NCBI RefSeq assembly: GCF_004010195.1
Contig: NC_057718.1
Coordinates: 39,229,143-39,293,142 of the forward strand
Source: Chiloscyllium plagiosum
Lineage: Eukaryota
Reading direction: 5' to 3'
DNA length: 64,000 nt
Shown: piece after piece, positions 5,856 to 63,760 of the stretch
Numbering within the stretch: position 1 is the stretch's first letter
How the letters are laid out: every line of letters begins with the position of its first letter
The notes under the pieces: generated by a model
The model's database searches: none
The model's input: only the letters and a program-made list of their open reading frames with translations
What the model was told of the DNA's origin: nothing
Made by a program: the position numbers and the translations under genes

Positions 5856-5925
5856 GCTGATGAATTACTGCTCCTCAGATGCTGCCTGAACTGCTGTGCT
5901 TTTCCAGTACCACTCTAATCTAGAG
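5856..5925 (+). mobile_element. Short Penelope pLTR-like fragment (family A)
   Basis: ctgctcctcagatgctgcctgaactgctgtgcttttccagtaccac matches the right arm of the 13029 element. Confidence 0.6.
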
Positions 5926-6549
5926 ACTGAAGAATATTGTTGCCTTTAGTGCCTTATCAAACATTATAACTGAATATCATTTGCAGTATTGGCAATACCA
6001 ATTTTGATTTTTGTCTCACATGGTTTGGGAATGCTGTGCACAGATGAGAAATGTTACATATTTAATTAATTTGGTGTCTAACTGGTCAACTCAACTAAAT
6101 AAAGTCTATTCTTGTACACCATTCAGTTATGCTGTTATTCAATAAACACCACATACACTGGCTGCTTATATTGGATGATTCCAAACAAGGAACATTTTCT
6201 CTATATTTTAGTTAGTCAAACAGCATTGAGCTCACACGGCAGACTCACTGTTTAGATTTACGTAATCAATGTGAGGCAATGCTATTACATTAAGAAGCAA
6301 GTGAAATGCAAACTGTAATAACTCCTTAGGATTAATATCAGTTATTTTAGCTCCAAGAATTTAACAGTTTGAGGGAGCTGTGAGGTTGTCAAAGAGATGC
6401 TAAGTAAGTACAGCTTTTGAACTTTCGCGCCTCAGATGCTTTTTAAATAGCTATTGAAGTTAAAATCCTAACTTAATATTATATGGTCTAAAATATTGAA
6501 TGAGCACAACCAAATGGGACTTCTCACAGAATAAATGCAAATTGTTGCA

Positions 6550-7370
6550 AAGAACATACACCAAAAGGCAATGAGTCCCGACAGCATTCCTGCAGTAATT
6601 GTGAAGACTTGGGAAGAATATTTGAAGAAACCATTTGCATCCCTAGTCAGCACTGGCAGTATGTTCTTTCCACAAAAATCAGGACAAATACAAACTAGCC
6701 AATTACTGCCCCATCAGTCTACTCTTGATCATCAGCAAAGAGAGAGAAGTTTTTGTTGACAGTGCTGTCCAACAGCACTTACAATGGCCTGCTCACTGAT
6801 GTTCAAACTGAGTTCAACCAGAGCTACTCAGCTCCTGACCTCATCACTCTCTTAGTCCAAACATAGAAAAAAGATTGAACTCAAAGAGTCATGTGAGAGT
6901 GACTGTCCTTGACATCAAGGGAGCATCTGACTGGGTGTAGCACCAAGGAGCTCTAGCAAAACAGGCATCATGAGAAAAGCTCTCCACTGGTCATGCTTAA
7001 CACAAAGAAAGATGACTGACGTTGTTGGAGGTCAATCATCTCTCCCTTTACTGCAGGAGTTCCTCAGGGTGAGTGTCCTTGACCCAATCATCTGCTTCCT
7101 CACTAACCTTCATCATAAGACCAGAAGAAAAACAATTCAAACACCTTGTTCAGTAATGTTTGTGAATTCTCGGATACTAAAGCAGTTCATGTCCATATGC
7201 AGCAAGACCTGAAAACTTTTAGGCTTGGGTTGCTAAGAGGGAAATAACAATCCACTGCATTGTGCCCAGCAATGATTACCTCCAGCAAGAAAGAATTACA
7301 CCATCTCCCATGATATTCAATGATATTACCATTGGTAAGTATTCCAACTTTAACATCCTGAGGCTAGACA
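6550..7370 (+). mobile_element. Old non-LTR (CR1/L2-group) reverse transcriptase fragment
   Basis: KAMSPDSIPAVIVKT, then gccaattactgccccatcagtctactc (ANYxPISLL) and cttgacatcaagggagcatctgac (LDIKGAxD) RT motifs, with frameshifts. Confidence 0.7.
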
Positions 7371-8234
7371 CTTAATGCTCCAACAGTCCAGCATATTAGT
7401 GTACCAACACGCCAAATCATGAACAAAGCATGTGTGACATTTTAGTTTGGTCATCAGGGAGCAATGCCAACAGCTTCCTCAAATAAAGCAAGTAAAATAG
7501 ATCAGAAGTAAGCAAGCCTGATTGCTCTCATGCTACTCCCAGTGGCCTGCCACACAGTGGCAAAAACAACACTAAGGCTGGAGGTTGTCTGCTTGTTTTT
7601 CAATTGGACAATATTGGAATCTGATAAGATAGAAAAATAATCTAAAAAGGAAAAGGCTAATGGGATAAATAAAGGAAAATAAGCATATAAGTATCTATGT
7701 TTTCAAATTGCAGAAAGTTTGCAGAATATTAACTAAAACATAGTACCTCAATACAGTTTCATAAGTAAAATACTAATTTATTAAAAATAGCAATCCTTCT
7801 TTTACAATTAATTTATTTCAATGAAACAGCCCTCTGGGGATGTGCATCTCAGGCATTACCAACAAATTTATGTACCAATGGTGCATGAACAAAAATGAAT
7901 TCAAATAATGTAGCTGTGTAATTAAATGCAGACAACATGGGTATTGGATACAGTGCTATATGTACATTTTTGTGGAGGATAAGGATTATAGTAGCTGTCT
8001 CAAGGATTTTCATTAATGCTGTACAGGTATTATATCAAAAAGTAATCCTACTTTAAAGCAATGTTTCTTGTGCTATTATGTGAAAAATATAATTTAAAAA
8101 TTGCTTTATTCTAATCCAAAATCAAAGAAGAAAAATATAATCTTGACAAGTCATTACAAATTACATTAGTCTGACTAAAAATAAACCATGTAGATCGTTT
8201 CCATAGATTCTGACAATTAACATCATTCCAACCT

Positions 8235-9241
8235 TAGAACATAGAACACAGAACAATACAGTGCAGAACAGGCCCTTCGGCCCTCGATGTTGCGCCAACC
8301 TGTGAACTATTCTCAGCTTGTCCCCCTACACTATCCCAAAATCATCCATGTGCTTATCTAAGGATTGTTTAAATCTCCCTAATGTGGCTGAGTTGACTAC
8401 ATTAGCAGGTAGGGCATTCCATGCCCTTACCACTCTCTGTCTTTAGAACCTGCCTCTGACATCTGTCTTAAATCTATCACCCCTCAATTTATAGTTATGC
8501 CCCCTTGTACACACTGACGTCATCATCCTAGGAAAAAGACTTTCGCTGTCTACCCTATCTAATCTTCTGATCATCTTGTATGTCTCTATCAAATCCCCTC
8601 TTAGCCTTCTTCGTGCCAATGAGAACAGGTTCAAGTCTCTCAGCCTTTCCTCATAAGACCTTCTCTCCAGACCAGGCAATATCCTGGTAAATCTCCTCTG
8701 CACCTTTTCCAATGCTTCCACATCCTTCCTGAAATATGGGGACCAGAACTGTACACAATATTCCAAGTGTGGCCGCACCAGCATTTTGTATAGTTGCAGC
8801 ATGATATTGCGGCTCTGGAATTCAATTCCTTTATGAATGAAACCTAACACATCGTATGCTTTCTTCACAGCACTATCCACCTGGGTGGGCAACTTTCAGG
8901 GATCTATGTACATGGACGCCAAGATCCCTCTGTACATTCACACTACCAAGAATATTTCCATTGAACCAGTACTCTGCCTTCCTGTTATTTTTCCCAAAGT
9001 GCATCACCTCACATTTAGCTGCATTGAATTCCATCTGCCACCTCTCAGCCCAATTCTGCAGTTTATCCAAGTCCCCCTGCAACCTGTAACATTCTTCCAC
9101 ATTGTCCACTACTCCACCGACTTTAGTGTCGTCTGCAAATTTACTAATCCATCCACCTATGCCTGCATTTAAGCCATTTATAAAAATGTCAAACAGCAGT
9201 GGTCCCAAAACAGACCCTTGTGGCACACCACTAGTAACTGG
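8235..9241 (-). mobile_element. Young CR1 LINE 3' fragment (TAGAACA-tail subfamily)
   Basis: ORFs 8873-9226 (PQGSVLGP...KFADDTK) and 8443-8892 (LVRPHLEYCVQFWSP) join across a single frameshift. (tagaaca)n tail. Confidence 0.92.
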
Positions 9242-10409
9242 GAAAGAATGTTCTTAGTTGCTGCACCATCAAGCTTCTGTTTTCAAGATCCCAATATAGC
9301 TCTTTAATCTTCATTTCATACATTCTTTTAAGATCACAAAATTGTTGAAATCATTACCATCTTTAGTCTTACATTTCTTCTAGTCTTCGGACCTTTGAAA
9401 CCCAAGTTTGATGTCATCTAATCACTACTTTTTGTTTGAATTCCCTAACTATTTCAGCTTTTCAATATCCTCCACAAAAAAATCTAGGCTTCTACAATAC
9501 AAAGTGATTTCCAACAGTAATAAAACTGAGGCAAATATAGCACAATCTCTTTATTCAGCTCCCACTTGACAGTGAAAACGTGGTGAACTTTTTGTATCCA
9601 CTATTATAGTGAATTTAAACAGAAAAAATATACAACTAAACAACACCTAATAAGCTTCAACAACTATCGGGTGGGAACATATCTGGAGGAAACAACTAAT
9701 AGTCCCTTCACTTTTTTTTTCTCTTCTCTCACAATGTCACATCTCTAGTTGTATTCCCACAATTCTGAGCAGCCCAGTCTCACATAAAAGGTGATGGCTT
9801 TCTTTATTCCGTGGGATACAATCAATGACCGATTGCTTCCAATAGAGATCCACCCTTGGAGGGATTGTAGTTTAGAAGTAGGACTACAGTACATTGATCT
9901 ATTTTTTTTAATTACAAGGAACTAGGACAAACCAGCCAAGTACAGTGAAGGCCTAATTGGAGATTTTCAAAAAATTGACCTCTCAATCTGTACTCATGAA
10001 GGGGAAGTGAAAAAGAAAGATTGGCCATTGTGTCCATGTTCTTTGGATGTCAATCAACATTTCAAAATTATCTGAGAGCTTAAGCAGCGGATCAGTAACA
10101 ATTTTCACAGTTTATTTACCTTTATCAAATATACTTTGGTCAGTTATCTCCAAATTTCAAAGTGTCACAATCAACACAAAAGTTACACGGTCTGGATGCA
10201 AAAGGGAGATATAATGTTTTTTTTAATGTAGTTTTAATGCTTGCAGAGCTGAGAATATAGTTATTCCTCTGTATCCATGAGGGTTCTGTTCCTGAGGAAG
10301 CTCATGAATTTCATTATTCGCAGCAAGATCCAAGAACAGCAAATGACCAGATATACTATTTTGCCATTTTGATTGAAGAGAATGCATTTATTCAAAACAG
10401 TCATAGTGT

Positions 10410-11840: not shown

Positions 11841-11842
11841 AA

Positions 11843-12530: not shown

Positions 12531-13028
12531 AGTCTGACCAGTACTGTCAATTGGACAATTTACCCTACATTTTGAAACTTGTATCAAACTTGACTTATAT
12601 CTATTTTCAATCTGATAATTTGAGTATTTTGTGACTTGTATCAATTATCCAAAATATATTTTTAATTTTTTAGATTATTGAAGATTATTGGTGAAATATT
12701 CTGAACCATTAGAGATCAGCGGGAAAGACCAGCTTAAAAAAAGTTGGAAATGAACATGCTGGTCATACTGGAGCATTGTTGTGAGGTATACAAAACCAGT
12801 CAGACCAGGATGTCTCATTCACAGGTTTGACTGTATCTCTGGTTTTGCCATTTTATGGCATTAAATTTGCTTTTCAATCTTAGGCTAGGGCTGCAATAAA
12901 GGGCAGGGGGTGGGACTGCTCACCTCTCCACCCTGATTTACAAAGTCAGTTGCAAACTGGTCTGCATGAACAAGGTTACTATGGGATTTCTGCCCATCAG
13001 TGGGAGGAAGTCCTATCCTTCAGAGCTG

Positions 13029-13256
13029 GAGAAAGTGAGGACTGCAGATGCTGGAGATCAGAGCTGAAAATGTGTTGCTGGAAAAGCGCAGCAGGTCAGG
13101 CAGCATCCAAGGAGCAGGAGAATCGATGTTTCGGGCATGAGCCCTTCAGGAATCGAGGAGCCATTCCTGAAGAAGGGCTCATGCCTGAAACGTCGATTCT
13201 CCTGCTCCTTGGATGCTGCCTGACCTGCTGCGCTTTTCCAGCAACACATTTTCAGC
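13029..13256. mobile_element. Palindromic Penelope pLTR-type insertion (family A) with hammerhead motif
   Basis: Arms 13061-13153 and 13163-13258 are inverted repeats differing by 2 CpG-type transitions and one 3-nt indel. Flanked by a perfect 18-bp direct repeat TCCTATCCTTCAGAGCTG at 13011-13028 and 13257-13274. Confidence 0.85.
13163..13198 (+). ncRNA. Minimal type I hammerhead ribozyme motif (Penelope-type)
   Basis: ATTC-CTGAAGA-A-GGGC(TCAT)GCCT-GAAA-CG-TC-GATT: CUGANGA and GAAA cores, helix II, palindromic ACGT helix III and a GUC site. Helix I is imperfect. Confidence 0.6.
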
Positions 13257-13337
13257 TCCTATCCTTCAGAGCTGCCAGCCAAACCTGATTGCAATGGAGT
13301 GCATGTCAAGCACCCTCTAAAAATAGTACCTGTCCTT

Positions 13338-16503: not shown

Positions 16504-17524
16504 TGCAATTGTGAGATATACTTCTAAATTAGATACTACTTGATATCTTTCAGATTTCATCATTATGCATATTTTTCACTTGTTATTGACTATATCCAGT
16601 TGAAAAGTTCCTTGTATAATAACAATGTACAGTCAATTGTTGTTGACTACGTTGTGATAATTCACTGAATTAGCCCCTGCAGCACTAGAAAGGAAAAACA
16701 AATGCTATCTTTTTTGAAGAAGCTGTGCTGCTGGCCAGGGAATAAGCTGATCAGAATATAGTTTTGGAAAAACAGTTTGGAGCATAGACACCTATCTGCA
16801 GTGCAGGTTCAGCGATTGCATGATGCTTAACTGAGTTGTTATTGGACTACTACAGTCAGGACAGTATAATTCCAGTCTGAGGAATGTAGATTCAGTTTTT
16901 TTAATGACCAAATGGACATAGAGATTCAAAATAGAATACACTTACATCAGAGTAACAAAAGCATGACATAAGGAAACAAGTTCAGAAGGCATGTTAATTA
17001 TGTATTATATCATTTGAGCTCTCCTTTTTAGATAAGTAAATTTAGTCTTTTACTCACCAGGTAAGACTTATTTCAGGTAAGATTTATCGTATTTTTGAGA
17101 ATTCTGCATGGCATTGGTAAAGGTACAAACTCAGTCTAGGCTATTTTACAATAGGAAAAACATTCAGCATCAACTAATATTAAAATGAAGATTTCAAGCT
17201 GATGCCAATTTGGTTTGTTATTCAACACCAGCTTGCAAACTGAACCACCGTACAACAGCAGATGACTCTTGCAAGCCAGTATAGCAGATTCAAAGCATTC
17301 TGTCGGAGTCAAATCACTTGCTCTTTCACAAACACTGACTGGCCTGCTGTGTATTTCCAGTATTTTCTCAGCTCTAAAATATTTCAGTTCAGCTGTCCCA
17401 GGAACACCGCTTAAGAGAAAAACTACCTGAAGAAGAAATAATTACAATAATCTAATATGCACATTACTAGATGTTGTTCTTTTAATAAAGCATTAATAAT
17501 GCTTTGGTATATATTTCTAAGGGA

Positions 17525-18735
17525 TCACATTTACTGGGTGGGACTTTCAGTGTCAGAAGGTCGTGACTTAAAGTAATCTTCCAAAATCTTGAACACATCT
17601 AGCTTTATTGCAATACTGTGGTGATCTCACTTTTTTAAGAGAAGATATCAAGGTTCTGATGCCTTCTCAGTTAAGTATAAAAGATCCTGGCCAAGATCAC
17701 TTGACCTCCATATCAGGATGCAGTGGAAGTCATGATGTGTGGACTAATATGGGAATTGCCTGGGAAAATTAAACCACAAATTCCCTGCTGCTTAATACAC
17801 TGTGCAAACAGCTCCAACTCTGAGTCAGATTTGCAGACTTCAGTCAGTTCCATCATATTTTATCTGACTACCCCAACACATGACCACAAGCCCCGAACAG
17901 ACCCAACTATTTCCCCTTACCATTTGACCCCTGAACTGACCCATTCCTTAGACTACCCTGCTGAAGAAGGGCTTATGCCCGAAATGTCGATTCTCCTGCT
18001 CCTTTGCTGCCTGCCGTGCTGCGCTTTTTCAGCAACACATCTTTCAGCACTACCCTCCTTAGCCAACCCAAATATCAGACCACCCATACTCCCCCACATA
18101 CAAACTTGAGTAGCATTTGACAAGCTGATTACCCTAATCCAAACTAACCCAATTGACTATCAATTTACTTACCTCCCCCACCTCCCAACTCACCTACCAC
18201 ACCCATCTCTTCACCTAGACACCTACTCACCCAACTACACACACTCATCTCACCCCATCCTCTGTCGCTTCACTTCACATCCCTGCCCATCCATCTACCC
18301 ATGCATTCACTAATCCACACTCAAAGACTCTAACTTTAGAGTTACCAGACAGAATATAGTAGCTAGGGCTGTAAAATCCATGCCTTCTCCTGACTCTGCT
18401 CCCCAGTGTTTGCTAAGGAAGGCCATGCTTACACTTCTGTATCAGCTAGGATTTGAAGATCCTGGAAGGAATGTGCTGTTGGGTTGGGAGAATGTCCCCC
18501 ACAGAGGTACTATGCTCTGTCATGTCCCTGCAGAACTATTCAAAAAACAATAAGTAAGTTCTGCTAGTCTTCTGCTACTCACCTCACCCAAGATGAGGAA
18601 GGTTTTCTGATTGTTTAGTTTGCTGAGTATAAAGTCAGCTGCTATATTTCCTGACATTACAACAGCAAATACACCAGGTTGTAATTCACCATGAAATGTG
18701 TGAAGTCATGAAAAGCATTATATTAATTCTTTCTT
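17525..18735 (+). mobile_element. Deu-domain SINE (SacSINE1/AmnSINE-like), split by about 900 bp of inserted sequence
   Basis: Head gtcagaaggtcgtg...aaagatcc at 17525-17695. Tail gctgctatatttcctgacattacaacag...gtcatgaaaagcattatat at 18590-18735. Confidence 0.4.
17960..18048 (+). mobile_element. Penelope pLTR-type insertion (family A) with hammerhead motif
   Basis: CTGAAGAAGGGCTTATGCCCGAAATGTC..., flanked by 8-bp direct repeat ACTACCCT at 17952-17959 and 18049-18056. Confidence 0.75.
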
Positions 18736-19847: not shown

Positions 19848-19952
19848 TTCTGTTGAAAGAAAATTGATTAACTCTATTTCTCTCCACAGATACTGCTGAC
19901 CTGTTATGTATCTCCACCATTTTCTGTTTTCTTATTTTAGATTTTCTGCATT
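19848..19952 (+). mobile_element. Decayed Penelope pLTR-like fragment (family B)
   Basis: ttaactctatttctctccacagatactgctgacctg...cattttctgtttt is homologous to the 29380, 32138 and 34051 copies. Confidence 0.5.
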
Positions 19953-20574: not shown

Positions 20575-20650
20575 AGTGTGCGGTGCTGGAAAAGCACAGC
20601 AGGTCAGGCAGCATCTGAGAAGCAGGTGAATCAACGTTTCAGGCATAACT
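20575..20650 (-). mobile_element. Penelope pLTR-type insertion (family A), truncated inside the ribozyme
   Basis: gctggaaaagcacagcaggtcaggcagcatc...aacgtttcaggcataa, flanked by GCTTGAGGG(C/T)CA at 20563-20574 and 20651-20662 (11/12). Confidence 0.75.
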
Positions 20651-22443
20651 GCTTGAGGGTCATCAGGGATTGACAGCCTGAAGATTATATGGACAGTGAA
20701 TTGGTCAATATGGAGATGTTGTCATCTCTTGAAGGACCTCACATTGCTGGATTTTGCAGTCCCGTTCATTATAGATCAAGTCACTTCTCCCACCCACTTT
20801 GGTGTGGTATCAGGTATTTTCTTTGCCTTGCATTGTTACAATTTCTGGGAAGACAGACAGTGAGAGCAACCGTATCTCTGAGTAATTTCCAGCCTCCACC
20901 TTTTTGCCTCCATGAGGCCCCAAACATCAAAGTTCCCTTTTTCGCAGTTTTCCCAGTAAACCCTGTAGGCTTTGCACCTTCTTAGGTCACTATCCAACTC
21001 ATCTATATGAGCTTGTACCTGCTCACCTTTATCCCCAGGCTCCGGCATATGAGGTGACCATTGATGACCATGGCAAGTGTGATCACCCCAGAACCCCAGG
21101 GAGTCTTTACTGTAGATAAATGCCCCTCCTGCACAACCTCATTCCAAACCATGGTTTATCATATCTTTCCCTTAGATATACAGTTGCTCTCTTTCACAAA
21201 TTTCTTCCCCTCACTGCCAGCCCGCCTGCAGTCCCCAATCCCCCACAAATAGGTTTTCCAGTCTCCTCACTGTAGCAGCAGTGTTTTGCCCCATTCTCCT
21301 CACCCTGTGCATTTATTGGGCAGGCTATTCAATGACAATTCAATAAGTGAGTCCTTTTATAAAACCACAATTTAAAAATTGTGGTAACAGGAAGCATGCA
21401 CCTACTTTAAAACTAAAAATTCATATAGTACCAATTTTCTGGTACCAGGACAGCCAATGCCTGTCTTAGTGAGACAGGCAGCATGCAATTGTGCATTGTC
21501 TGAGCACAATTCATGATGCTAACTGCTGGAGAGTTCAGCAGGTTCCTGATCAGTGTCCTCCAATCCAGCCTGTCCTTAAAGGCGTTCTACCCCTTTTAAA
21601 GAGGATATAGTCATGTGGTCAGTATCTACTTTCTTCCAATGAGTGTCTGCAAGTAGGGCACTACACAAATAGAGCATCACTGAATGTGACAGCTCCTACT
21701 TTGATACATATGATGTTGGAGACCTTAACACTGGAGACTGGCAAGAGGAGAGAGGACATGCTTTTGTGGGAGAAGGGGTATCAAGGGCCTGTCTCTGAAA
21801 GGAATGGCAGGGTGGATTCAGGGGTTTAATTCAATGCTGGAGTCTAACTCCACAGCAGAACTGATAGCAGTTACTCAGGAACACCACCTCTTTGGATGGC
21901 TAACCCTTTAAACAGCACCAATGAGGGATCTTGCACCTGATGCATGTTCACATTTGATAAAAGAAACAAACGTTTTCAGTGTCTTGGCATCTGCACTAGC
22001 TGCATCCCAGAATCCAATGTTTGCTTTTATGAACACATTCACCTTATGCCATTTTATTTTACACTTTAAATGCTTGTTTCAAATAATAAACATATCAAGA
22101 AACTGAACTAGAATGAGAAGATCTCTGGCAAGAGAGTCCATTCAGATATCTGTTCCCAATCTTCCCATAATGAGTAAGGGGAAGATTGAAAAGAATTATT
22201 AAGTATAAAAAGGTCTTCACATAGTAGTGAATATAATAGCTGCATTTATGTGGTCATTCAGATTAATGCACTTTTCTCTTTCTTCTCCATTCCCTGCCAA
22301 TCACATGTTGTAGCTTACAACATTTTTATATACTTGCTACTTTTTTGTGCAAAGGATCATCTTTAGGTCTTCTGAACATTAATTACTCAAACTAACACAT
22401 TTCAACATGCCAGTTTTAATAACCAGTTTATATATTTCATTTG

Positions 22444-22634
22444 AGGAGAAAGTGAGGTCTGCAGATGCTGGAGATCAGAGCCGGAGATGTGTTGCTGGAA
22501 AAGCGCAGCAGGTCAGGCAGCATCCAGGGAACAGGAGAATCTTCAGGAAAGGGCTTATGCCCGAAACGTCGATTCTCCTGTTCCCTGGATGCTGCCTGAC
22601 CTGCTGCGCTTTTCCAGCAACACATCTCCGGCTC
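22444..22634. mobile_element. Palindromic Penelope pLTR-type insertion (family A)
   Basis: Perfect 65-bp inverted arms at 22477-22541 and 22571-22635. 15-bp TSD TATATATTTCATTTG at 22429-22443 and 22635-22649. Confidence 0.85.
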
Positions 22635-23229: not shown

Positions 23230-23534
23230 GGGCGGCACAGTGGTTAGCACTGCTGCCTCACAGTGCCAGAGACCAGGTTTCAATTCCTGCCTCGGGCAAC
23301 TGTCTGTGTGGAGTTTGCACATTCTCCCCAAGTCTGAGTGGGTTTCCTCTGGGTGCTCAGGTTTCCTCCACAGTCCAAAAATGTGAAGGTTAGATGAATT
23401 GGCCATGCTAAATTGCCCATAGTGTTGGGTGAAGGGGTAAATGGAAGGGAATGGGTCTGGGTGGGTCGTTCTTCAGAGGGTCGGTATGGACTTGTTGGGC
23501 TGAAGGGTCTGTTTCCACACTGTGTAATCTAATC
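23230..23534 (+). mobile_element. HE1-like V-SINE, inserted in an older Deu-type SINE (about 23188-23715)
   Basis: gggcggcacagtggttagcac head, V-domain and (TAATC)n tail. The right flank carries the Deu motif gagttctccctgttgtcctggccaatat. Confidence 0.85.
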
Positions 23535-23744: not shown

Positions 23745-24360
23745 CATGAATTTCTTGATCTTTGTTTCCAGGGATAAGCTATTCCTCAATATCCAACACA
23801 AGCTCACTGTCTCCTACAACTGTCTGACTCTATTCTATTTCATCACTTTTGGTCTCCATCACATCAGTTCTGACAAAGCCACCTTCTATATCATTGTGAT
23901 TGATATGACTTTGTTTTTCCTCAACTGAAAATTGACTGTGATTGGCAGGTCCTGAAGAAGGGCTTATGCCCAAAACGTTGATTCTCCTGCTCCTTGGATG
24001 CTGCCTAGCCTGCTGTTTTTCCAGCACCACATTTCTCAACTGTGATTGGCAGGGCCCTTGATTATGCCCTCTGTTTCATACACTCTGCTCTAACGCTTTC
24101 TTCACTAATCTCTACATCCAGTAAATCATGCTTTGCTAATTGCACCAAGTGCAGCATGGTGCCTCCAGCAAAAATATCTTGTGATCTCTTTTCAACATTG
24201 TGAAGAGACAATTCATTTCATGATACCCTGATCCACTCTTCAATCATCCTCAACATCCAATCTCTCCCTTCCCATTCCAGCATAAGAAAAGTAATATCTG
24301 CGCTTAATTCTATCCTTTTCACTGTCGCGGTTCCAAATGTTCCTTCCAAATGAATTAGTA
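23745..24360 (+). mobile_element. Decayed Penelope-like element ORF fragment (RT C-terminal region toward GIY-YIG)
   Basis: FLIFVSRDKLFLNIQHKLTVSYNCL resembles the recalled fish/shark PLE motif FLDLSVSISGDRLSTxIHYKPTDSHSYL. ctccatcacatcagttctgac resembles LRRICSD. Confidence 0.5.
23950..24038 (+). mobile_element. Penelope pLTR-type insertion (family A) with mutated hammerhead
   Basis: CCTGAAGAAGGGCTTATGCCCAAAACGTTG (GAAA>AAAA). 15-bp TSD ACTGTGATTGGCAGG at 23935-23949 and 24039-24053. Confidence 0.8.
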
Positions 24361-26612: not shown

Positions 26613-29379
26613 AAAGATGATACTGTATCTGGATATCTCCAAGCAGGTTACATCTAATTAACAATTTTTGAAGAGAGAAAACAACAGTTTTAAATTTAGG
26701 AGCTGATGCTGAACATTGAGCACTGAAATACATTAACTACCCAGAAAATTGGGTGCACTGAAAATGCACTTCAGCTCTCAGCATTGCCTCTGTGTTGGTG
26801 GGGAAGTCAAAAGGAAATAAGCAATCAGTGTATAAGATGGATTAGGAGTCCTCCAAATACTATTCATATTAATGCTGACCCCATTACCTAACTGGAATGG
26901 CTGAGATAGAGATTCAGCTCTACAACCCCTTTTTAAATAGCTAAATGAGACCCTTCTATCATTTGCCCCAACTTCATTGTTGCCTTGTGCCCTGCCTGAA
27001 ATCTTATGCCTTGGGCTCAGTATCTACCTGCCCCATGCCAAGAAGGCACCTGGTACACAACAAGCAGCTAGCATTCAATGAGCAGATCTCACACCATCAC
27101 AACGTCAGCTCTTCCACACACAGTTGTGAGAAGCACCTGAATAGCAGTGGCACTAGCTGAACTGCCTAACACTCATCATCGTCCTCCTTTTTTTTAAATT
27201 GTCAAGGAAATTTTTTTTATTATTTTTTCAATAAAGGCATTAAGCAGGAAGTTTGAATTTAAAAAATTATTCCCAATGGACTTCTCTTAGACTTTAAGAA
27301 CTATCACTGTATCCTGATAAAAATAAGTTATGTAATTCAGCATAAATTGGGCACAGGAGAATGCTCGATTCAGTCATTACGAAGATGGCTAATTATCTCA
27401 AACCGTAATCATGATCTCTACGATTACGATTACTATACTAATTGGATGTAGGCAGACATACGCATTGCACACAATCAGATTCCATTCCTGGCCATTTGGA
27501 CGGCTGCTGCAGCAGAGCTGAGTTGGGGCAGAGAAGCCAGTTAGTGTCAGGCTCAGAACATGCAAGGTCAGGACTAGTGGGCCATGACAGTGACTCAGCT
27601 TTCACTTGTGTCCCATTCAGTCCCTCACTGTTAACATATTGTCAGGAATATGGAGTTGTCGCATCTGATGGAAAATGAAAACAGCTGATTTGGAAATTGT
27701 GCCTTATTTTTCTCCATTGCATTAACTTAGTGTTAAAATGGGGGAGAAAAAAGAGAAAATCGTGCCCTATACATTAGAATTATAAAAAATTGATAGAGTT
27801 GTGAATATTAGCACAAACAGCCTGGCATAAAGATGCCGCAGGGAAGAACTATGAAAAACTAGAAAGTAGAGTGCAGTTACTTTGTCACACATTTACAGAC
27901 ATTTAATAAGTCTCTGCAGGCACACATGCTGAGTTAGTTTGGGACATGAACTGTACATTTAATTCAAGACAATGCATTTTTAATCCTCCTCGATATAAAT
28001 CAGCAGGTTTTCAGAAAATAGGTGATTTATTTCCTGAGCGAGATGGTTGAAAAATTGTTGCAGCGCAACCCCTTAATAATCCTCCCAATGCCAAAGCTGG
28101 CTGCAGCTACTATATTGATTTACAGTGAGACCAAAAATTTTCTTGGACCATTCAGCCAGTTCTTACTCAAAGCAGTGGCAGCGGGTAAGAATTATAACCA
28201 GTACCAGCAGTGAGAGTATCATAGAGGACAGGAACTGACCTGGTGTATTGAACAAGGCGAGGCTATTCCAAGGAAAGAATGTGTCTGTGAACTGGGGCAT
28301 AGGATGTCAATATACAGATTATCTCTGTGAAACAGAGAGAGGGGAAAAAAGAACTTTAATTCTTTTGTCAGTACAGGCCTTGTTTAAATGAAAACTGCTA
28401 TTGTTAAAGATTCAATAATCCACACCACTGCACTGCAGGAGAGAAGAAAGATTTATTGAGTAGCAACCCCATAAGTAGTAAATGCAATCAAAGCATCACA
28501 GTTTCAGGATTGCATCCACTGCTCACATTTTATTAGCTGGCAACTAAATGGCTCCCTTGGTATTTGCTGCTTGCAGAAATTGTGACTTTTTTTTGAACTG
28601 AGTGCAGGCTAACTGAACTCATAAGGGGAGATGCTTCAAATGTAAATGTCTTTCATTGCAATAGGATTTCATTTCTCTGCAGTTATTACTTAAATGGTAA
28701 TAATTATATAACTAGTGGTGCCTATGAAAACAATACCTAGGGCAAGCTAAAAAGAGGGCATTTTTCACAATTCTTCTATTAAAAGCCATTGACAATATAC
28801 ATTTGATCAAAGGTACAATTTCAGTATAATTTCAGAATTCTTTTCCTAGACAGCTTCTTTACTGACAATTATTTCCAGATGAATAGTGCATTGGCTTTGG
28901 CATCTTATGCAATGAGTGAATTTCTAAGGACGTGTATATATTAAAATTAAAGAAATGTAACACAGCAGAATAAACATATCACCATAAATTACAAACAGTG
29001 TGTTCCCAATATGTGTCACCATTAAAGAGAGCCACTGAGAGCTAGTTGTGCATGTGCCACTGTAGGTGAACATAAGTAATAATACTTCAGCTGGGGTCTG
29101 ATTAGTAATTCAGAAAAAAATTGCAATATCTACCCAGTTATTGTATTGCAGTCAGATTTCTGTAAGCTCTGAATTTTAAAGACAGCAGACTAAATATTGC
29201 TGACCAACAAAGTGCTCAGTGATGGGACGCTGTGATACTCAGAAAGGAGTTAATCTCATTACCAGAGACTGCTGATCACATGCTTGAAGGATAATGAGTT
29301 CACTGGAATCAGTACAAAGATGTGGTATTTCCTGCAGTACAGTATTGTTACATCACACTGAACTTAGTCAATTTGGAAA

Positions 29380-29505
29380 GTTCTAAAGAACAGTCACTGA
29401 ACCCAAAACATTGACTGTGCTTTCTCTCCACAAATGCTGCCAGACAGGCTGAGTTTTCCAGCAAATTCTGTTTTCTTTCAGATTTCCAGCATCTGCAGTA
29501 CATTG
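29380..29505 (+). mobile_element. Penelope pLTR-like fragment (family B), decayed hammerhead
   Basis: gttctaaagaacagtcactgaacccaaaacattgac...cagatttccagcatctgcag. Confidence 0.6.
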
Positions 29506-32055: not shown

Positions 32056-32137
32056 AAAAGCTAAGCAAAGGCTCAAATAATAGATTGCTCAGAGGAATAT
32101 GACACTACCTGCCAACCAAGGTGTTCAAAAGGACTGA

Positions 32138-45922: not shown

Positions 45923-46660
45923 GCATCAAGAAACTGATGTCAAGATGGGCTTTGCCTAACTTTGCAAGTGACTCTGCCATTTCACCATGACCTATGTTAC
46001 TTAAATCCCTATAAAATTCCACCTAATGTTTTCTGCTATTCAAAGGAACTGCATTTGGATATCAGTGTTTTAATACTTGGTGGAAGCTCATGTTGTCAAA
46101 AATACCATGGATGACACCGATAGACTTTTCTCTATGGATCTTTATCAGGAATGAACAGCATTGCAAATTTCAAAACAACGTTCCAATTTTATGCATGATT
46201 GCATCTTGCTCCACCCAGCAATGGTGTTAGCCACAATCTCTGTCTTCTGAAATGTTTTCAAAAGTTGTTCTAGTGAGCAGAAACCTCTGATAAAGCATTA
46301 ATAACCAAAGTATGAAATTTATAAAGAGTTTGCTGTTGTACAGCAATAATTTCTTAAATTAGACTGCATGCCTGAATTATCTACATAAACTAGATTTATA
46401 TTATTCAATTACCTAAAATATGAATCGTGAACAGGACACACTTGAATGGAGTGCAAAATTAAATAGGCTTAACATTTAATTTAATTTCACCTGGAATGAT
46501 CAATTTATTCATGAAAGTAATAAGATATTTATAATTAAGATATATTACTCCTAATCATAAGATTAAATGAATCCTATTTATTAGTTTATCAATCAATTCA
46601 CAGACAGCTGTACCCACCACTCCTACTTGTGCCTTGTGTATAGTGGACAGGCTTCACATA

Positions 46661-47310
46661 AAGTCATAGAGATGTACAGCACGGAAACAGACCCTTCGGT
46701 CCAACTCATCCATGCCAACCAGATATCCTAACCTAATCTAGTCCCATTTGCCAGCACATGGCCCATATTCCTTTAAACACTTCCTCTTCACATACCCATC
46801 CAGATGCCTTTTAAATGTTGTAATTGTACCAACCTTCACCAATTCCTCTGGCAGCTCATTCCATACACGCACCATCCCTTGCATGAAAATGTTGCCCCTT
46901 AGGTCCCTTTTAAATTTTCCCCTCCCACCATAAACCTACGCCCTCTAATTCTGGACTCCCCCACCCCAGGAAAAAGATCTTCTCTATTTAGCCTATCCAT
47001 GCCCCTCTGATTTTATAAATCTCTATAAGCTCACCCCTCAATCTCCAACGCTCCAGGAAAAATAGCCCCAGCCTATTCAGCCTCTCTAATATAGCTCAAA
47101 CCTTCCAAACCTGGCAACATCCTTGTAAATATTTTCTGAACCCTTTCAAGTTTCACAGCATCCTTCCTATAGTAGGGAGACCAGAATTTCACACAATATT
47201 CCAAAAGTAGCCTAACCAATGTCCTGTACAGCCACAACATGACCTCCCAACTCCTATACTCACTCAATGCTATGACCAATAAAGGAAAGCATACCAAATT
47301 CCTCTCTTCA
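46661..47310 (-). mobile_element. CR1/HER1-like 3' fragment
   Basis: LYRTLVRLLLEYCVKFWSPYYRKD; tail agtcatagagatgtacagc. Confidence 0.9.
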
Positions 47311-47329
47311 TTTACAAACATGAGTCTCT

Positions 47330-47815
47330 TATATCATCTCGATGTCCTACTGTTTGTGTGGCTGGACTATGGAAGTTTCTGGTCAATGATGATTGCAAGG
47401 TCTCGCTATCAACAGATTTGGCAGTAGCAATACCATTAGTAGCTGCCTGGATGCTCTCTCTAATTAGAGATAGTCATTAATTGACACTTGTACGCCATGT
47501 AACATTTGTGCCATTTACCAGTCCAAGTCTGAATATTGTTTCGATTATGCAGCATTCATTATCTGAGGAACAACATATTCTGACACGTCATCAGCAAGCA
47601 GTCCACCTCTGGCATGAATGGAAGAAAGATAATGGAGGAACAAATAAATGTAGTGCTGCCTCTGATGCTTCCCTGAAGAATATGTATAGCACTGTGCTAT
47701 AATTTAAATCATTAGCTTCCAGTGTACCCAATCATGGTCCTTTGTGCCAGTTACTGTAGAAGTTTCTGTCTGACTTCTATTGATTACGTATTTTTTTAAC
47801 TAGGTGCCTTAATGC
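47330..47815 (-). mobile_element. Old non-LTR RT fragment, same family as 6550
   Basis: Decayed similarity (gtaacatttgtgcca...ccaagtctgaatattg...tcatcagcaa) to the reverse complement of 7100-7300. Confidence 0.4.
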
Positions 47816-50190: not shown

Positions 50191-50509
50191 TTAGATTAGA
50201 TTACTTACAGTGTGGAAACAGGCCCTTCGGCCCAACAAGTCCATACCGACCCTCCAAAGAGAAACCCACCCAGACCCATTCCCCTACATTTACCCCTTCA
50301 CCTAACACTATGGGTAATTTAGCATGGCCAATTCACCTAACCGGCACATTTTTGGACTGTGGGAGGAAGCCAGAGCACCTGGAGGAAACCCACACAGACA
50401 CGGGGAGAATGTGCAAACTCCACACAGACAGTTGCCTGAGGTGGGAATTGAACCGAGGTCTCTGGCGCTGTGCGGCAGCAGTGCTAACCACTGTACCACC
50501 GTGCCGCCC
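50191..50509 (-). mobile_element. Full-length HE1-like V-SINE
   Basis: GGGCGGCACGG head, V-domain, (TAATC)n tail. Confidence 0.92.
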
Positions 50510-50638
50510 ATAGTTACAGGTTCACATCCTGAAAATTACTGCCTTATCCCAACTCTCTTACATCAGCATTGATAGAGGATTGGCTATGTAATGTACGGCA
50601 CACAACATCATAGGTTCCTATATTATTAAGTAGCCTTT

Positions 50639-51693
50639 CATAGAGTCAGAGAGTCATAGATTCATACAGCAAGGCAACAAACCCTTCAATCCAGCCTATT
50701 TGCATTGGCCAGACATCCCAAGCTGACCTAATCCCATTTGCCAGCATTAGGCCCTTATCCCTCTAAACCCTCCCTATTTATATATACCCATCCAGGTGCC
50801 TTTTAAAAGTTGTCAGTGTACCAGTCTCCACCACTTCTTCTGGCAGCTCATTCCATATACACACCACCCTCTGTGTGAAAATGTTATTCCTCAGCTCACT
50901 CTTAAATCTTTCTCCTCTCACATTAAATCTATGCCCTCTAGTTTTGGACTCCTCCACCCGAGGAAAAAGAACTTGGCTATTCACCCTATCCATACCCTCA
51001 TGATTTTATAAACCTCTATAAGATCATCCCTCCTCCTCTGATGCTCCAGGGAAAATAGCCACAAGCCTATTCAGCCTCTCCCTATAGCTCAAACCCTCCA
51101 GTCCTGGCAACATCCTTGTAAATCTTTTCTGCAGCCTCTCAAAATTAACAACATACTTCCTATACAAGGGCAACCAGAACTGTATACGGCATTCCAAAAG
51201 TGGCCTCACCAATCTCCTATGCAGCTGTAACATGATACTCCAACTCCTGTTTTCAATTTTCTGACCAATGAAGGTAAGCATGCCAAATGCCTACTTCATC
51301 ACCCTGTCTCCCTGTGACTCCCCTTTCAAGGAACTATGCACCTGCACCCCTAGGTCTTTTTGTTTGTCAACATTTCCCAGGGTCAGAAAGTATGGCGCTG
51401 GAAAAGCACAGCAGGTCAGGCAGCATCCAAGGAGCGGGAGAGTCGACATTTCGGGCATAAGCCTTTCATCAACACTCCATAGGACTCTACCACTAACTGG
51501 TCCTGCCCTTGTTTGCCTTACCAAAATGCAACACCTCACATTTATCTAAATTAAGCTCCAATGATACCATCTGATTAAGGTCCCACTGTACTCTGAGATG
51601 ATCTTTTTCTTACATAAATGACAAAAAGGATTGGGATGTGAATATAGGAGGCATGGTTAGCAAGTTTGCAGATAACACCAAAATAGAAGTGGT
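50639..51693 (-). mobile_element. CR1/HER1-like fragment with 5' inversion
   Basis: Minus-strand ORF2 end (RLVRPLLECRIQFW). 51629-51690 is the upstream RT segment (NIGGMVSKFADNTK) in plus orientation. Confidence 0.85.
51384..51470 (-). mobile_element. Penelope pLTR-type insertion (family A) inside CR1
   Basis: gctggaaaagcacagcaggtcaggcagcatcc...gtcgacatttcgggcataagcctttcatca, with a diverged flanking repeat caaca...agg (10/14). Confidence 0.75.
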
Positions 51694-52131: not shown

Positions 52132-53180
52132 GACTAAAAGACATAGGAGCAGAAAGTAGGCCACTCAGCCCATCAAGTCTGCTCCAGCAGCCAATCATGG
52201 CTGATAAGTTTCTCAACCCCATTCTGCCACTTTCTCCCTGTAATACTTGATCCCCTTCATACTCAAGGACCTATCTTTCTCAGTCTTAAATATACTCAAT
52301 GACCTGGCCTCCACAGCCTTTTCTGGCACTGAATTCCATAGATTCAACACTGTCTGTTTGAAAAGGTTTATCCTTATCGCTGTTCTAAAAGGTCTTTCCT
52401 TTACTCTAAGGCCGTGCCCTTGGGTCCTAGTCTCTCTTACCAATGGAAACATCTTCGCAACATCCACTCTGTCCAGGCCATTCAGTATTCTGCAAATTTC
52501 AATTAGATCTCCCTCATCCTTCTAAACTCCATTGAGTATAGACCCAGAGTCCTCAAACATTCCTCATATATTAAACTTTCCATTCCTGGGACCATTCTCG
52601 TGAATTTCCTCTGAACACGCTCCAGGGCCAATATATTCTTCTGGAGATATGGGACCCAAAACTGCGAACAATATTCCAGAACTTCAGACATACATGCCAG
52701 CTTTTATATTCAAGTTCTCTCAAAATAAATGCCATCATTGCATTTGCCTTCCTAAGTACTGACTCAACCTGCAAGTTTACCTTGAAAGAAACCTGGACTA
52801 AAACTCCCAAGTCTCTTTGCACTTCAGACTTCTAAATTTTCTCCCCATTTAGAAAATAGCCCAAGTCTCTATTCTTCCTATCAAAATGCATGACCTCACA
52901 CTTTCCCACGCTGTACTCCATCTGCCACTTCTTTGCCCAATCTCTTAATCTGTCCAAATCCTTCAGCAGCCTCCCCATCTCCTCAATGCTACCTGTCCCT
53001 CTACCTATCTTTGTATCATCTGCAAACTTAGCCAGAATGCCCTCAGTTCCCTCATCTAGATCATTTATGTATAAAGTGAAAAGTTGTGGTCCCAACACTA
53101 AGCCTTGTGGAACACAACTTGTCACTGGCTGCCACCCTGAGAAGGATCCTTTTATTCCCACTCTCTGCTTTCTGTCAGTC
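52132..53180 (-). mobile_element. CR1 LINE 3' fragment (third subfamily)
   Basis: VPQGLVLGPQLFTLYINDL..KFADDTK; LEYCSQFWVP; tail taaaagacataggagcag. Confidence 0.9.
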
Positions 53181-53970
53181 CTTCATTAGTACTTCTTCTC
53201 TAGTGATATTTATTGTATTTACTTCCTCTATTACATTTGCCCAAGATTACTTAGTACTTTTAGAATACTATCAGTGTCTTCTAAAGTGAAGATTCATGCA
53301 AATTTATTCAACTCTTCTCATGTTTCCTTTTCCTATTGTTATTTATTTGTCCTCATTCTCCCTTCCTTTTTGTATTTTAAAGAAGCTCTTAACATTTTAA
53401 TATTACTTGTTTACTCTCAACGTTTACTTTCTCCCTCTCATTTTTTTTGGTCATCTTTTGTCAGTTTTTAAAACTTTCCCAATCCTCCGGCTTACCACTA
53501 CTTTTTGCCACGTTGTAAATTCATTGTCTCTACATGAAACAATTTGATTTTGTCTTGGAACTAGTTGACACTTGCTTGAGCTTAACAGGAAAGGTGCAGC
53601 AGTTTCCTCACTTTCACCCCATTTAACATTGTATCCGGGTCCTATCGAACCAATCAGGCCTCAATTCATGAGACATCCAACAAAGGCCTCTAGTTACATC
53701 AAAGACAAAGAGATTTGAATGAGAGGTTATCTGTTCAATTCTAACAACCATACAGCCTGACTTCCATTTGCTGGGAAGAGCTAAAATTAACTTGCATTAG
53801 TCCAGTTAAGAATAAGTGATTGTAACAAGGTCAGCCAGCTGGAGCTCATAAAATGAGTTCCCCAATTAGGCTGATAGATAAAAAGAGGAGTCAGAAATTC
53901 TGAAACTTTGGGTTCTGGCTCTGATGTGGGAGTGTCAGAATCAGGGGCTTACCATGTGTAAATGTAGGGC

Positions 53971-54102
53971 GTTCAATCACCTGATGAAGGAGCGTCGCTC
54001 CGAAAGCTAGTGTGCTTCCAATTAAACCTGTTGGACTATAACCTGGTGTTGTGTGATTTTTAACTTTGTACACCCCAGTCCAACACCGGCATCTCCGAAT
54101 CA
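53971..54102 (+). mobile_element. Penelope pLTR-type insertion (family C)
   Basis: 132 bp carrying a hammerhead motif and ATTAAA (54021-54026). 12-bp TSD TAAAT(G/A)TAGGGC at 53959-53970 and 54103-54114. Confidence 0.8.
53978..54012 (+). ncRNA. Intact minimal type I hammerhead ribozyme motif
   Basis: CAC-CTGATGA-A-GGAGC(GTC)GCTCC-GAAA-GC-TA-GTG: helix I CAC/GTG, full core, 5-bp helix II and palindromic AGCT helix III. Predicted cleavage after A54009. Confidence 0.75.
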
Positions 54103-55109: not shown

Positions 55110-55911
55110 CCGTACGTACTCTCGTTAAAGTCATGTAAAGGTTGATCCCCTATTTTTGGCCAAAAAATCTGGAATTTTCCACATATCTCGCATAAAAGTC
55201 AACTCTCGTTCCTCACAGATAATAGATCAAAATGTGTGTATCAAGGTATTATCTTGTACATAAATGTTATGATGAGGAAATTATTTCCTTTTGCGCTATT
55301 ACATGTCTTGATGTACAATTCATACCATTAGATTAGATTACTTACAGTGTGGAAACAGGCCCTTTGGCCCAACAAGTCCACACTGACCCACAACCCATCC
55401 ATTCCCCTAGATTTACCCCTTCACCTAACACTAAGGGCAATTTAGCATGGCCAATTCACCTGATCCGCACATCTTTGGACTGTGGGAGGAAACCGGAGGA
55501 AACCCATACAGACACAGGGAAAATGTGCAAACTCCACACAGTCAGTCGCCTGAGTCGGGAATTGAACCCAGATCTCTGGCGCTGTGAGGCAGCAGTGCTA
55601 ATCACTGTGCCACCGTGCCGCCCAAAGCACATAACTAGACATTAGGCTAGAGATTTCTTAGGTTCATTATTGAAAATTTATCACACCATCATTTTCTATA
55701 CAAGATAGGCCTTTATGCATTTACTTCACTATAATTACCAAATCCCTGATCTTCCTTCCTTCGTGCAGGACTTGATTGGAATTGCGGCTGTTGACAATTT
55801 CTCATGGCTGAATTTTAGTCCCTCAAAAGTAGTATCCTTGTAACAGTCGATCCCATAAATTTAACCTTAAAAATAGTCTAAAAAATTCAACTTTTACATG
55901 AGTATATACTT
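55110..55911. mobile_element. Tc1/mariner-superfamily MITE relic hosting a SINE
   Basis: Left end TA|CCGTACGTACTCTCGTTAAAGTC; right end reverse complement TA|AAGTATATACTCATGTAAAAGTTG. Imperfect TIRs with TA on both flanks. Confidence 0.5.
55328..55623 (-). mobile_element. HE1-like V-SINE
   Basis: Head, V-domain and (TAATC)n tail, as at 50191. Confidence 0.9.
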
Positions 55912-61509: not shown

Positions 61510-62188
61510 ATTTGTGTCACAGATAGGCAGGGTGGTTAAGAAGGCATTTAGCATGCTTGCCTTCATTGTACAGACCTTTGAGTATAAGTGTTGAGACATC
61601 GTGTTGAGACATCATGTTGAGGATGTACAAGACATTGGTGAGGCCTCTTCTTGGGTACTGTATGCAGTTTTGGTCACCCCGTTACAGGAAATATGTTATT
61701 AAACTGCAGAGGGTTCAGAAAATATTTACAAGAATGTTGCCAGGAATGGAGTGTTTGAGATGTAAAAGACACTGGAAAGACTGGGACTTTTTACACTGAA
61801 GCGCAGGAGATTGGGGTATGATCATATTGAGGTTTTACAAAATCATGAGGAGCATAGATAAGGTGAATGATCGGGGTCTTTTCTCTAGCGTGGGGGAGTT
61901 GAAAACTGGAGGGCATTTTTTAAGGTATCAGGAGAAAGATTTAAAAAGGACATGAAGAGAAATGTTTTTACACAGAGAGTGGTTCGTGTGTGGAATGAAC
62001 TGCCAGAGGAAGTGGTGGACACAGGTACAGTTACAACATTTAAAAGACATTGGATTAAGTTCATAAATAAGAAAGGTTTGGAGTGATATGGGCCAAATGT
62101 AGGCAGGTGGGACTGATTTAATTTGGGAACATGGTCGATGTGGACTGATTTGAATAAAGAATCTGTTTCCATGCTGTATGACTCTGAC
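61510..62188 (+). mobile_element. CR1/HER1-like 3' fragment
   Basis: YKTLVRPLLGYCMQFWSP; tail tctgtttccatgctgtatgactctgact. Confidence 0.9.
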
Positions 62189-62257
62189 TAAATATCATAC
62201 AGCTGTTAATTATGCATGCCACATCCATGAGATCCACATGGAAATGTTCATATGTGT

Positions 62258-62370
62258 GGATTCTTGTGATGCAGTGGAAATGTCCCTACCTTGATGCAGG
62301 AGGTCTGGCTTCAAGTCCCACTTGCTCCAGAGATATGTCATAACATCTCTAAATAGGTTGTTTAGAAAGA
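62258..62370 (+). mobile_element. Short tRNA-headed SINE
   Basis: gatgcagtggaaatgtccctacc...ggcttcaagtcccacttgctccagag. Confidence 0.55.
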
Positions 62371-63367
62371 TAGGTACTGTGCTAACAGCAATATAAAGTG
62401 CTGCCTGTACAGTTTCACAGCCTTTCACATCTGTGAACACATTAAAAAAAGGCAATTTGGCCAACATGCCAACATAAATCCAAAGCCTCTCCAACAGAGA
62501 TCTTGCCAGGGTCCACATCTCCAGCACAGGATATGGAACAAGCGACAGAAAATTGGGTAAGACATGATAGAAAGAGAAAGCTTTAATAAATAATTTTTAA
62601 AAATGAAAAGTTACAGGTAAGTGATGACTTGAGTAGAAAGTTTTCTTCTACATGATGTATAGAAAATAAAACTTTAATAAATGAAGAAGTTTTGCAAATA
62701 AAGGAATATACACAAATGTCTAAGATAATGTTTTGCATGCCTTACCATCTTGGATGGACTAAATGATATCTAAACAAGATCCAACTTCCAGTGGCCAAGG
62801 CAGCTATATGCAGGGTTCAGCATAACACCATCACCACTCAGTTGACAAATTGAACTGCTCAGTTCTGTCCCTTATGTAACACTTCAAACAAGTAAGCTAA
62901 TGTCATTGAGATATGGCATGTTACAGAACATTCAACACAATAAACAGATGTAAAAACACTCAAAATGAAAATCTATTGCTGCCAGGATTTGTAAAAAACC
63001 AAATCAAAAACCCTGTTAGAACTGTGAATCTTCTGTAATTGCTTTTAAAATCAATTTACAACTTCCAAGAATTTAATCAAGCCAGTTCCCATGACAAAAA
63101 AAACAACATATGACAGTCCTATATACAATACTACGCTTTCTTTAAAAATTGTTATTATATGCAATGATTTTCACATCTTCTTTCTGTTAACATTTACTTT
63201 ATGAATTAAACAAAGATTGTAAGATAAAAAGAAGGCCTGACGTTCTATTTTGATATACGAGTGGCCAAACAGAAAACCATTTTCCAAAACCTCTCCATAC
63301 TATCTTACTAGAGTGGCTGATGGTGGGTGTTTCCAACTTATTTAATAGCAAATGGTTATTCCCAATA

Positions 63368-63760
63368 AGAACAGAAAATCCTGGAAATACTCAGCAGATC
63401 TGGCAACATCAGGGGAGACAGGTCAATGACCTTTCATTAAAATTTAAGCAAAGTTTGACAACTAAATATCCAACTAAAGGATAAAGAGAAGAAAAATGAT
63501 GGTAGGGTGAAGGCAGGTGAGAATAAAAGCAAGAAGAATGATGGTGATTGGCAGAAGGGTTGGTAAAGGGAGAAATAAATAAAGGAGAGATGGTTTGAGA
63601 GTAGATGTAAATAGGGAATAGCAGAACCATTATGAATAGTTGTTGTCTGAAAAAATGTGGACAGTGATTATGATCTGAAATTGTTGAACTCAATGCTAAG
63701 TTCAGAATGCTCTGTACCTAATTTAAAGGAGAGGTGATGTTCCTTGAGCATTCATGAGTA
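63368..63760 (-). mobile_element. Penelope-like element 3' end (GIY-YIG C-terminus, pyrimidine-rich UTR, pLTR)
   Basis: Minus strand 63668-63748 reads LKEHHLSFKLGTEHSELSIEFNNFRS*, like the PLE motif LEEQHLIFRLGTLQPxGLNIEFNNF. Followed by a C/T-rich tract and a family-B-like pLTR (ccagatctgctgagtatttccag). Confidence 0.65.

Follow-up and report, generated by a model that had tools for sequence, protein, structure and literature searches.

The short repeats analysed here lie in a 64,000-nt stretch of the 3.56-Gb genome of the shark Chiloscyllium plagiosum (NC_057718.1, 39,229,143-39,293,142; hereafter, the window). The closest described systems are the Penelope-like elements (PLEs) and the retrozymes. 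Insertion units of endonuclease-bearing (EN+) PLEs combine 5' truncation, an adjacent inverted pseudo-long terminal repeat (pLTR) and a 30- to 40-bp tail at one end (PMC8557442 and PMC3846280; these and all other papers are cited for the parts of their text that were covered). A CX2-5CxxC linker between reverse transcriptase (RT) and endonuclease marks the Neptune and Nematis clades (PMC8557442). The hammerheads of metazoan pLTRs are mostly single motifs or close opposite-strand pairs and have been ascribed to truncated PLEs (PMC4209133). The PLE of D. virilis has an internal promoter whose start lies 46 bp before an intron (PMC2377424), and the end of that intron meets helix I (PMC4209133). 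In vitro, the Anolis Poseidon element PAc has two internal RT start sites, which define the tail; the enzyme cuts and extends both strands, copying mainly uncut RNA, and ribozyme cleavage is not needed (PMC11167929). Non-LTR retrozymes are by definition head-to-tail tandems with two or more complete ribozymes (10.64898/2026.07.22.740005).

An initial annotation of the window had described short hammerhead-bearing insertions of three Penelope-type families (A, B and C) and had read them as a non-autonomous retrozyme- or SINE-like system (SINE, short interspersed element). In our tests the units behaved as PLE termini and did not behave as a retrozyme or SINE-like lineage. We consider it fairly probable that they are the terminal repeats of three or more autonomous Penelope-like retrotransposons and that they entered the genome as short, likely dead-end 'strong-stop' complementary DNAs (cDNAs) of the front of the element RNA. 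The element class, the minimal hammerhead, the inverted pLTR and the one-sided tail are already in print, and the object itself is ordinary; this analysis adds a count of junctions leading from the edge of the hammerhead into the open reading frame (ORF). In the literature within reach, which did not include subscription papers and Repbase, we found no statement of this end-based mechanism.

The shark units are like EN+ PLE insertion units in standing head to head with a tail at one end and a target site duplication (TSD) around the whole (PMC8557442, PMC3846280). Families A and C are like Neptune- and Nematis-type PLEs in having an RT, a C-terminal GIY-YIG endonuclease and the CX2-5CxxC linker (PMC8557442). 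Compared with the PLE insertions described in the covered literature, the minimal pLTR-end form dominates in the shark (≈ 267 insertions per Mb), TSDs are 12-15 bp rather than the 8-10 bp of Adineta PLEs, and the one-tail rule, the 5' stop and the jumps have been quantified. With the pLTR hammerheads of PMC4209133 the units share CUGANGA, an extra base before helix II, GAAA, a palindromic dinucleotide and UH; helix II is 4-5 bp long, against 7-8 bp in Schistosoma. Neither shark nor Callorhinchus was found in the searchable one of the two supplements of that paper, the covered parts of which do not analyse end positions; PMC6155905, as far as covered, added nothing on sharks. As in PAc, two internal RT start sites would define the tail, and most templates are uncut, whereas the PAc ORF begins in helix II with RT starting inside the ORF and the family A ATG lies beyond the tail (PMC11167929); 5' ends, inverted pairs and jumps are not treated in the covered parts of that paper. 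Like the non-LTR retrozymes, whose survey includes one chondrichthyan genome, the units carry type I hammerheads related to PLE pLTRs and occur as dispersed monomers; unlike them, the window units are monomers or inverted pairs (10.64898/2026.07.22.740005). No head-to-tail tandem with two or more complete ribozymes was present in the window.

The units are terminal repeats of ORF-bearing PLEs

Abundance was estimated in 100 stretches of 10 kb taken at round coordinates of large contigs (973,635 non-N bases), using profiles built from the data with seeds drawn from these same stretches. The profiles located 347 arms in this ≈ 974-kb sample (A, 181; B, 84; C, 61; D, 21) and none in the reversed sequence. 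These arms make up 260 insertions (267 per Mb), cover 3.4% of the bases and occupy 93 of the 100 stretches. If the sample is typical, the genome holds roughly 0.9 million insertions. Family D is a fourth hammerhead family with a different helix II, absent from the window and seen at L045:6743-7405 and at L156, L168 and L166. It forms long inverted pairs and has a weaker 5' stop, and its GIY-YIG end reads REFLEAWHS, which we take to be Penelope/Poseidon-like.

The origin from PLEs proposed in the initial annotation was confirmed: families A, B and C each run upstream into the 3' untranslated region (UTR) and GIY-YIG end of a PLE encoding RT and endonuclease. In long family A copies the order upstream is a 230-nt 3' UTR, the GIY-YIG domain, the CX2-5CxxC linker and the RT, and 33 of 176 arms extend into the UTR. 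Locus L229 matches P0004 168-816 (E = 9e-143), in which both RVT_1 and GIY-YIG score above the cut-off; the GIY-YIG of L204 reaches 21.9 bits, slightly below the 22.6 required. The family A unit occurs both after the stop codon (L037, L204) and before the ORF start (L255, L185, L269, L272). Past the tail it continues into the ORF start, with the first in-frame ATG ≈ 40 nt beyond the tail. Its presence on both sides of the ORF identifies the unit as the pLTR. The family B unit follows a decayed ORF end at 7 of 14 other loci, and family C has a long AT/CA-rich UTR leading to the same kind of ORF (L304 matches P0004 491-887, E = 5e-42). The linker reads PCNRRRCKTC in A, CHGRRCKTC in C and, decayed, PCKYQRCNI in B. 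Close relatives of the element protein carry carpet shark names. No single copy of an intact full-length element was recovered, the long copies being broken by assembly gaps. Searching the genome with Pfam GIY-YIG yielded a single weak match.

Two decayed autonomous-type partners had been proposed, at 63368 and 23745, and only the first stood. It is a longer PLE fragment with a 3' UTR and a GIY-YIG C-terminus; it owes its identification to its DNA relatives, the peptide alone scoring 44-46 against PLE proteins with a shuffle maximum of 49-51, which is not significant. The sequence at 23745 resembled an RT relic by eye and failed all tests: no PLE protein profile or blastn match was obtained, and its local alignment score of 28 compares with a shuffle mean of 26.8 (82 of 200 shuffles equal or above).

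Hammerhead motif and ribozyme cutting

The core, helix II, the palindromic 15.2-16.2 pair and a short helix I are all present, as in the minimal type I hammerhead of PLEs. The minimal layout claimed for the window thus applies to the family profiles; individually, only three window arms (13167, 17961 and 53981) pass a strict descriptor, which over 464 kb gave 28 matches against 0-1 in 10 shuffles. Helix sequences differ among the families yet still pair, with a U-U mismatch in helix I of family A. An Rfam scan of the window returned no hammerhead model among 8 weak matches at E ≤ 5, just weak hairpin families, and single-strand folds showed helix II only (z about 0). Among copies within one family (family B pairs left out) there were no compensatory changes, departures being CpG-type decay. 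Cores are intact in 46 of 83 (A), 8 of 29 (B) and 16 of 35 (C) arms.

Positions are counted from the C of CUGA, which places the predicted ribozyme cut at +28. Only 6 of the 70 family A arms that begin inside the unit start there. Self-cleavage as the origin of the 5' ends was rejected: four of the six are explained otherwise, the small +28 peak comprising three slippage duplications and one helix I microhomology. Since most arms keep the whole core, their templates were not RNA cut by its own ribozyme, which would travel mostly uncut in the element RNA. Two other candidates were discarded: a second cut site at -4/-5 (the U at -6 is not conserved, 20/33) and a splice acceptor at the same place (no AG).

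A discrete 5' edge and probable jumps from it into the ORF

A discrete 5' boundary within a few nucleotides of the core had been noted in the window and was borne out in the sample. The stop was tested in families A, C and D, family B not being testable, with 5 A arms and 1 C arm next to N gaps excluded. Among family A arms that reach +4, 78 of 117 stop by -12, at the front edge of the hammerhead. The stop hazard is 0.69 per 10 nt between +4 and -12, against 0.12 and 0.09 on either side, a six- to sevenfold difference. In family C, 35 of 48 arms stop at the edge (hazard 0.82). Close pairs reveal the same edge without an upstream reference, since the partner arm begins there. In public sequencing runs, loose read ends occurred at three places, namely -4 (where read depth also steps), the short end and the tail end; these ends are therefore not an artefact of this assembly.

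The same edge appeared in longer copies. At 20 of 30 loci, which were picked for the ORF start so that the frequency is not a genome rate, a unit with its tail is followed by an ORF piece of variable length and a second unit in the same sense. Of 31 same-sense junctions, 20 have a second unit that begins at -3 to -9; when the reference included 400 nt of UTR, 12 of 27 junctions fell in one 9-nt window over a 460-nt range (p = 4e-14), the two counts differing in reference length. The ORF-side breakpoints are widely spread, some in the first 60 nt and others as far along as the endonuclease. Of the 14 jump structures inspected, 9 are each flanked by a single TSD, and at three of the loci (L284, L286 and L289) the upstream unit likewise starts at -2 to -4. 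A breakpoint fixed at the very edge where the stubs end makes random deletion an unlikely cause, and the simplest account of the shared edge is an RNA 5' end at which the RT stops or jumps.

TSD-bracketed tandems of unit, ORF piece and unit, with two same-sense hammerheads 330-680 nt apart, occur at L269, L281, L283-L286, L288 and L289. ORF breakpoints recur twice at three positions, at unrelated sites (L288/L289, L279/L296 and L270/L271). Such two-hammerhead tandems are possible seeds of true retrozymes.

The same PLE insertion products would result if the folded hammerhead acted at this edge as a structural stop or as a hot-spot for joining, the template being the 3' pLTR or a tandem read-through RNA. 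We regard this as unlikely, although it is the strongest of the alternatives. It would explain why, in families A, B and C, the edge falls on the 5' strand of helix I, why short microhomologies are found at many pair junctions, why a third of the arms read through the edge and why no RNA start is seen in the reads. An RT moving 3' to 5' on the RNA, however, meets the helices at +28 and +19 before the front edge, and the hazard there is only 0.07-0.12. Nor does a folded stop account well for clean joins from the edge to scattered ORF positions, or for the second pass that ends at the same edge in the three loci named above.

For the strong-stop account, a number of observations are unfavourable or cut both ways. 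The edge stop is weaker in family D (5/18). 5' ends are spread over -1 to -9 rather than set on a single base. All subfamilies of the long family A copies keep YA(-4)TTC (Y, A and C in 33/33), which by its letters fits the initiator consensus used for comparison, YA+1NTYY; the letters at -4 to -1 also form helix I, so their conservation is no proof. The base before the -4 A is G in 15 arms and A in 7 (p = 0.026), a weak excess to which the inverted arm or the TSD can contribute some of the G. Long inverted copies are lost to assembly gaps, so that short copies are over-represented, and the jump loci were selected. About seven tail-less paired arms end well before their fixed site, as fold-back or internal priming would allow. 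The single raw RNA run that could be used, whose species label was not shown to be that of this genome, had no pile-up of RNA starts, and 92-96% of its matching reads continue into unrelated flanks, as expected from read-through of dispersed copies. Poly(A) single-cell reads had no start or end pile-up and no head-to-tail RNA joint, in a type of library that would lose small circles. With no RNA start in the reads, the strong-stop step is only inferred.

Head-to-head pairs with a single tail

Each family has two 3' ends, 29-39 nt apart, and tail scores are bimodal. Half of the arms sit in head-to-head pairs within one TSD. Close neighbours (≤ 60 nt) stand head to head in 72 cases, against 3 in other orientations. 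When arms up to 1500 nt apart were paired, 91 pairs were obtained, of which 82 have one tail, 4 have two and 5 have none (45.5 one-tailed pairs expected, p = 3.5e-16). The proportion is 78 of 87 without the window and 65 of 72 among close pairs; the 19 distant pairs may include chance associations, other orientations giving counts of 7-11. A TSD score of at least 8 was found around 56 of 91 pairs compared with 16 of 500 swapped flanks, the mode being 14-15 bp. Divergence in family A is 9.7% between the arms of one pair and 16.2% from pair to pair, and paired arms share subfamily variants. We infer that each target strand primed one of the two cDNAs of a pair, from different start sites and probably on a single RNA.

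At eight unrelated sites (L004, L006, L013, L017, L018, L019, L021 and L024) the same pair junction recurs, the left arm ending in helix II and the right beginning at -4; it fits a fold-back with a 5-nt loop, and the query held part of the junction. At L054 (arm at 7799, minus strand) a 15-bp TSD brackets a tailed family A unit with 570 nt of other sequence, including an inverted ORF-start piece.

Strong-stop stubs could also have acquired their inverted arm by fold-back self-priming of the first cDNA, with resolution by the endonuclease at the tail boundary. Self-priming has been proposed for Adineta PLEs (PMC3846280). The shared subfamily variants agree with it, as do short internal inverted pieces at the 5' side of tailed solos and the early-ending tail-less arms. 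In 64 pairs, on the other hand, the arm reaching further upstream is the tail-less one in 26 and the tailed one in 18 (20 are equal), and simple fold-back from a tailed first strand cannot produce a longer tail-less arm. Tail-less solos with clean TSDs exist (23950), and several junctions would require 2-nt loops. We hold this origin of the inverted arm to be improbable.

Under the strong-stop reading, the RT/endonuclease would cut both target strands with a stagger of 12-15 nt. Priming would be internal, at two sites, one for each strand, and give a head-to-head pair with a single tail. Each cDNA would end by run-off at the 5' end of the RNA, which would lie some 4-5 nt ahead of the core, and the usual outcome would be joining of the ends at the run-off point, leaving a stub. 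Sometimes the RT would jump to the 3' part of the RNA and continue, producing long copies and regenerating the pLTR.

In retroviruses and LTR elements, strong-stop cDNA is a short product that starts at an internal primer site, stops at the 5' end of the RNA and then undergoes strand transfer. The route proposed for PLEs would differ in dispensing with tRNA primer and integrase, the target DNA serving as primer. In L1 twin priming, inversions arise through priming on the second target strand; in the shark, both arms would instead copy the same stretch of RNA. Tentatively, and with less confidence than in the origin of the stubs, we suggest that PLEs replicate like miniature retroviruses. A protein dimer would use both target strands as primers on one RNA, at two sites close to its 5' end, to make strong-stop cDNAs, and strand transfer to the 3' part would be needed for the ORF and pLTR. 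The almost one million shark stubs would be failed transfers, and misdirected ones would yield the two-hammerhead tandems that seed retrozymes. The origin of the pLTRs, the inverted copies and the tail are features called undefined in the covered parts of PMC8557442. Insertion ends are recorded in some 3.4% of the sampled DNA, in numbers that lead to three clear-cut predictions which the available in vitro system can address: each target strand should have its own single start site, the RT should run off at the front edge of the hammerhead, and template jumps should depart from that edge.

The initial view of a transcribed, self-spreading non-autonomous family using PLE proteins in trans draws on the discrete size, huge copy number and TSDs of the units, on PLE-derived retrozymes (10.64898/2026.07.22.740005) and on the tandems with two hammerheads and three twice-recurring breakpoints, which may mean that small sources exist. 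It is nevertheless very improbable. For each family the same genome holds an ORF-bearing PLE of which the unit is the terminal repeat, there is no clustering of mini-copies only (in a poorly resolved tree), pair junctions vary from copy to copy, same-sense neighbours within 60 nt number 2 against 72 inverted, and cores decay; moreover, the Anolis enzyme required sequence past the tail (PMC11167929), which is missing from the stubs. The tree comprises 106 family A arms, and its 75 short copies are intermixed with its 31 long ones (26 label changes; shuffled mean 27.1; 170 of 500 shuffles as low), with only 12 of 103 branches well supported. Together with the ORF-linked units, this mixing leaves no need for a separate non-autonomous family.

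Units in the window

All 13 sites named in the window carry family A, B or C sequence, with 17 arms by profile matches. The earlier statement that the units are not eroded full-length elements also held: one TSD brackets them, so that their ends formed at insertion. The six TSDs reported were recovered, in support of TSDs of the target-primed reverse transcription type. Four sites (13029, 22444, 32138 and 34051) turned out to be head-to-head inverted pairs, which had been missed.

In family A, the pair beginning at 13029 consists of a tailed left arm (13029-13156, minus strand) and a tail-less right arm (13163-13258, plus strand) with an intact minimal hammerhead core from 13167. Its 18-nt TSD (13011-13028 and 13257-13274) is partly common to the unit's own end. 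The pair at 22444-22634, with a tailed left arm that begins at the predicted cut site, has a 15-nt TSD (22429/22635). Tail-less solo units are found at 17960-18048 (plus strand, core intact; TSD 17952/18049, 8 nt exact, 10/11 matching), 20575-20650 (minus strand, beginning within helix II; TSD 20563/20651, 11/12 matching), 23950-24041 (plus strand, beginning 2 nt before the core; 15-nt TSD 23935/24039) and 51384-51472 (minus strand, no clear TSD). A core-less fragment lies at 5866-5926 (plus strand, by profile match); CTGATGAA at 5857 may be target-site sequence. CTGATGA stands in the target site adjoining the 5' junction of two core-less solos (5857 and 20660-20667), by chance or microhomology.

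Family B is represented by a decayed fragment at 19867-19951 and a decayed, tailed solo unit at 29379-29515 (both plus strand, by profile match), by a pair with a tailed left arm and a possible 9-nt TSD at 32133-32339, and by a pair with a tailed right arm at 33934-34209, the left arm of which is broken by ≈ 60 nt of another repeat's end (33995-34050). At 63365-63439 (minus strand) a family B unit ends the longer PLE fragment at its 3' side; the 3' UTR and decayed GIY-YIG C-terminus occupy 63440-63900 (minus strand), the C-terminus ending in IEFNNFRS-stop near 63667. Family C, the youngest (copies 98-100% alike), contributes one tailed solo unit at 53971-54102 (plus strand) with an intact core at 53981 and a 12-nt TSD (53959/54103, 11/12 matching). 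TSDs were only weak at 5856 and 32138, and none was convincing at 51384, 19848, 29380, 34051 and 63368. An extra decayed A/B-like fragment, absent from the original list, lies at 17321-17366.

Other features of the window

Positions 35610-35820 (minus strand) match the potassium channel KCNH1 (EAG1) at E = 2e-38 and contain a coding exon for its cyclic-nucleotide-binding homology domain, so that intron sequence makes up at least some of the window. Many decayed 3' fragments of long interspersed elements with RT-like translations, which we assume to be CR1-like, are present in both orientations, including those at 676-1383, 8443-9253, 30847-32068, 40188-41419, 46657-47372, 50642-51365 and 52576-53182. 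A dispersed repeat of 200-300 bp with ≈ 90% identity, presumably SINE-like of the shark HE1 type, occurs at 33-245, 23231-23523, 39184-39398, 50207-50512 and 55414-55626.

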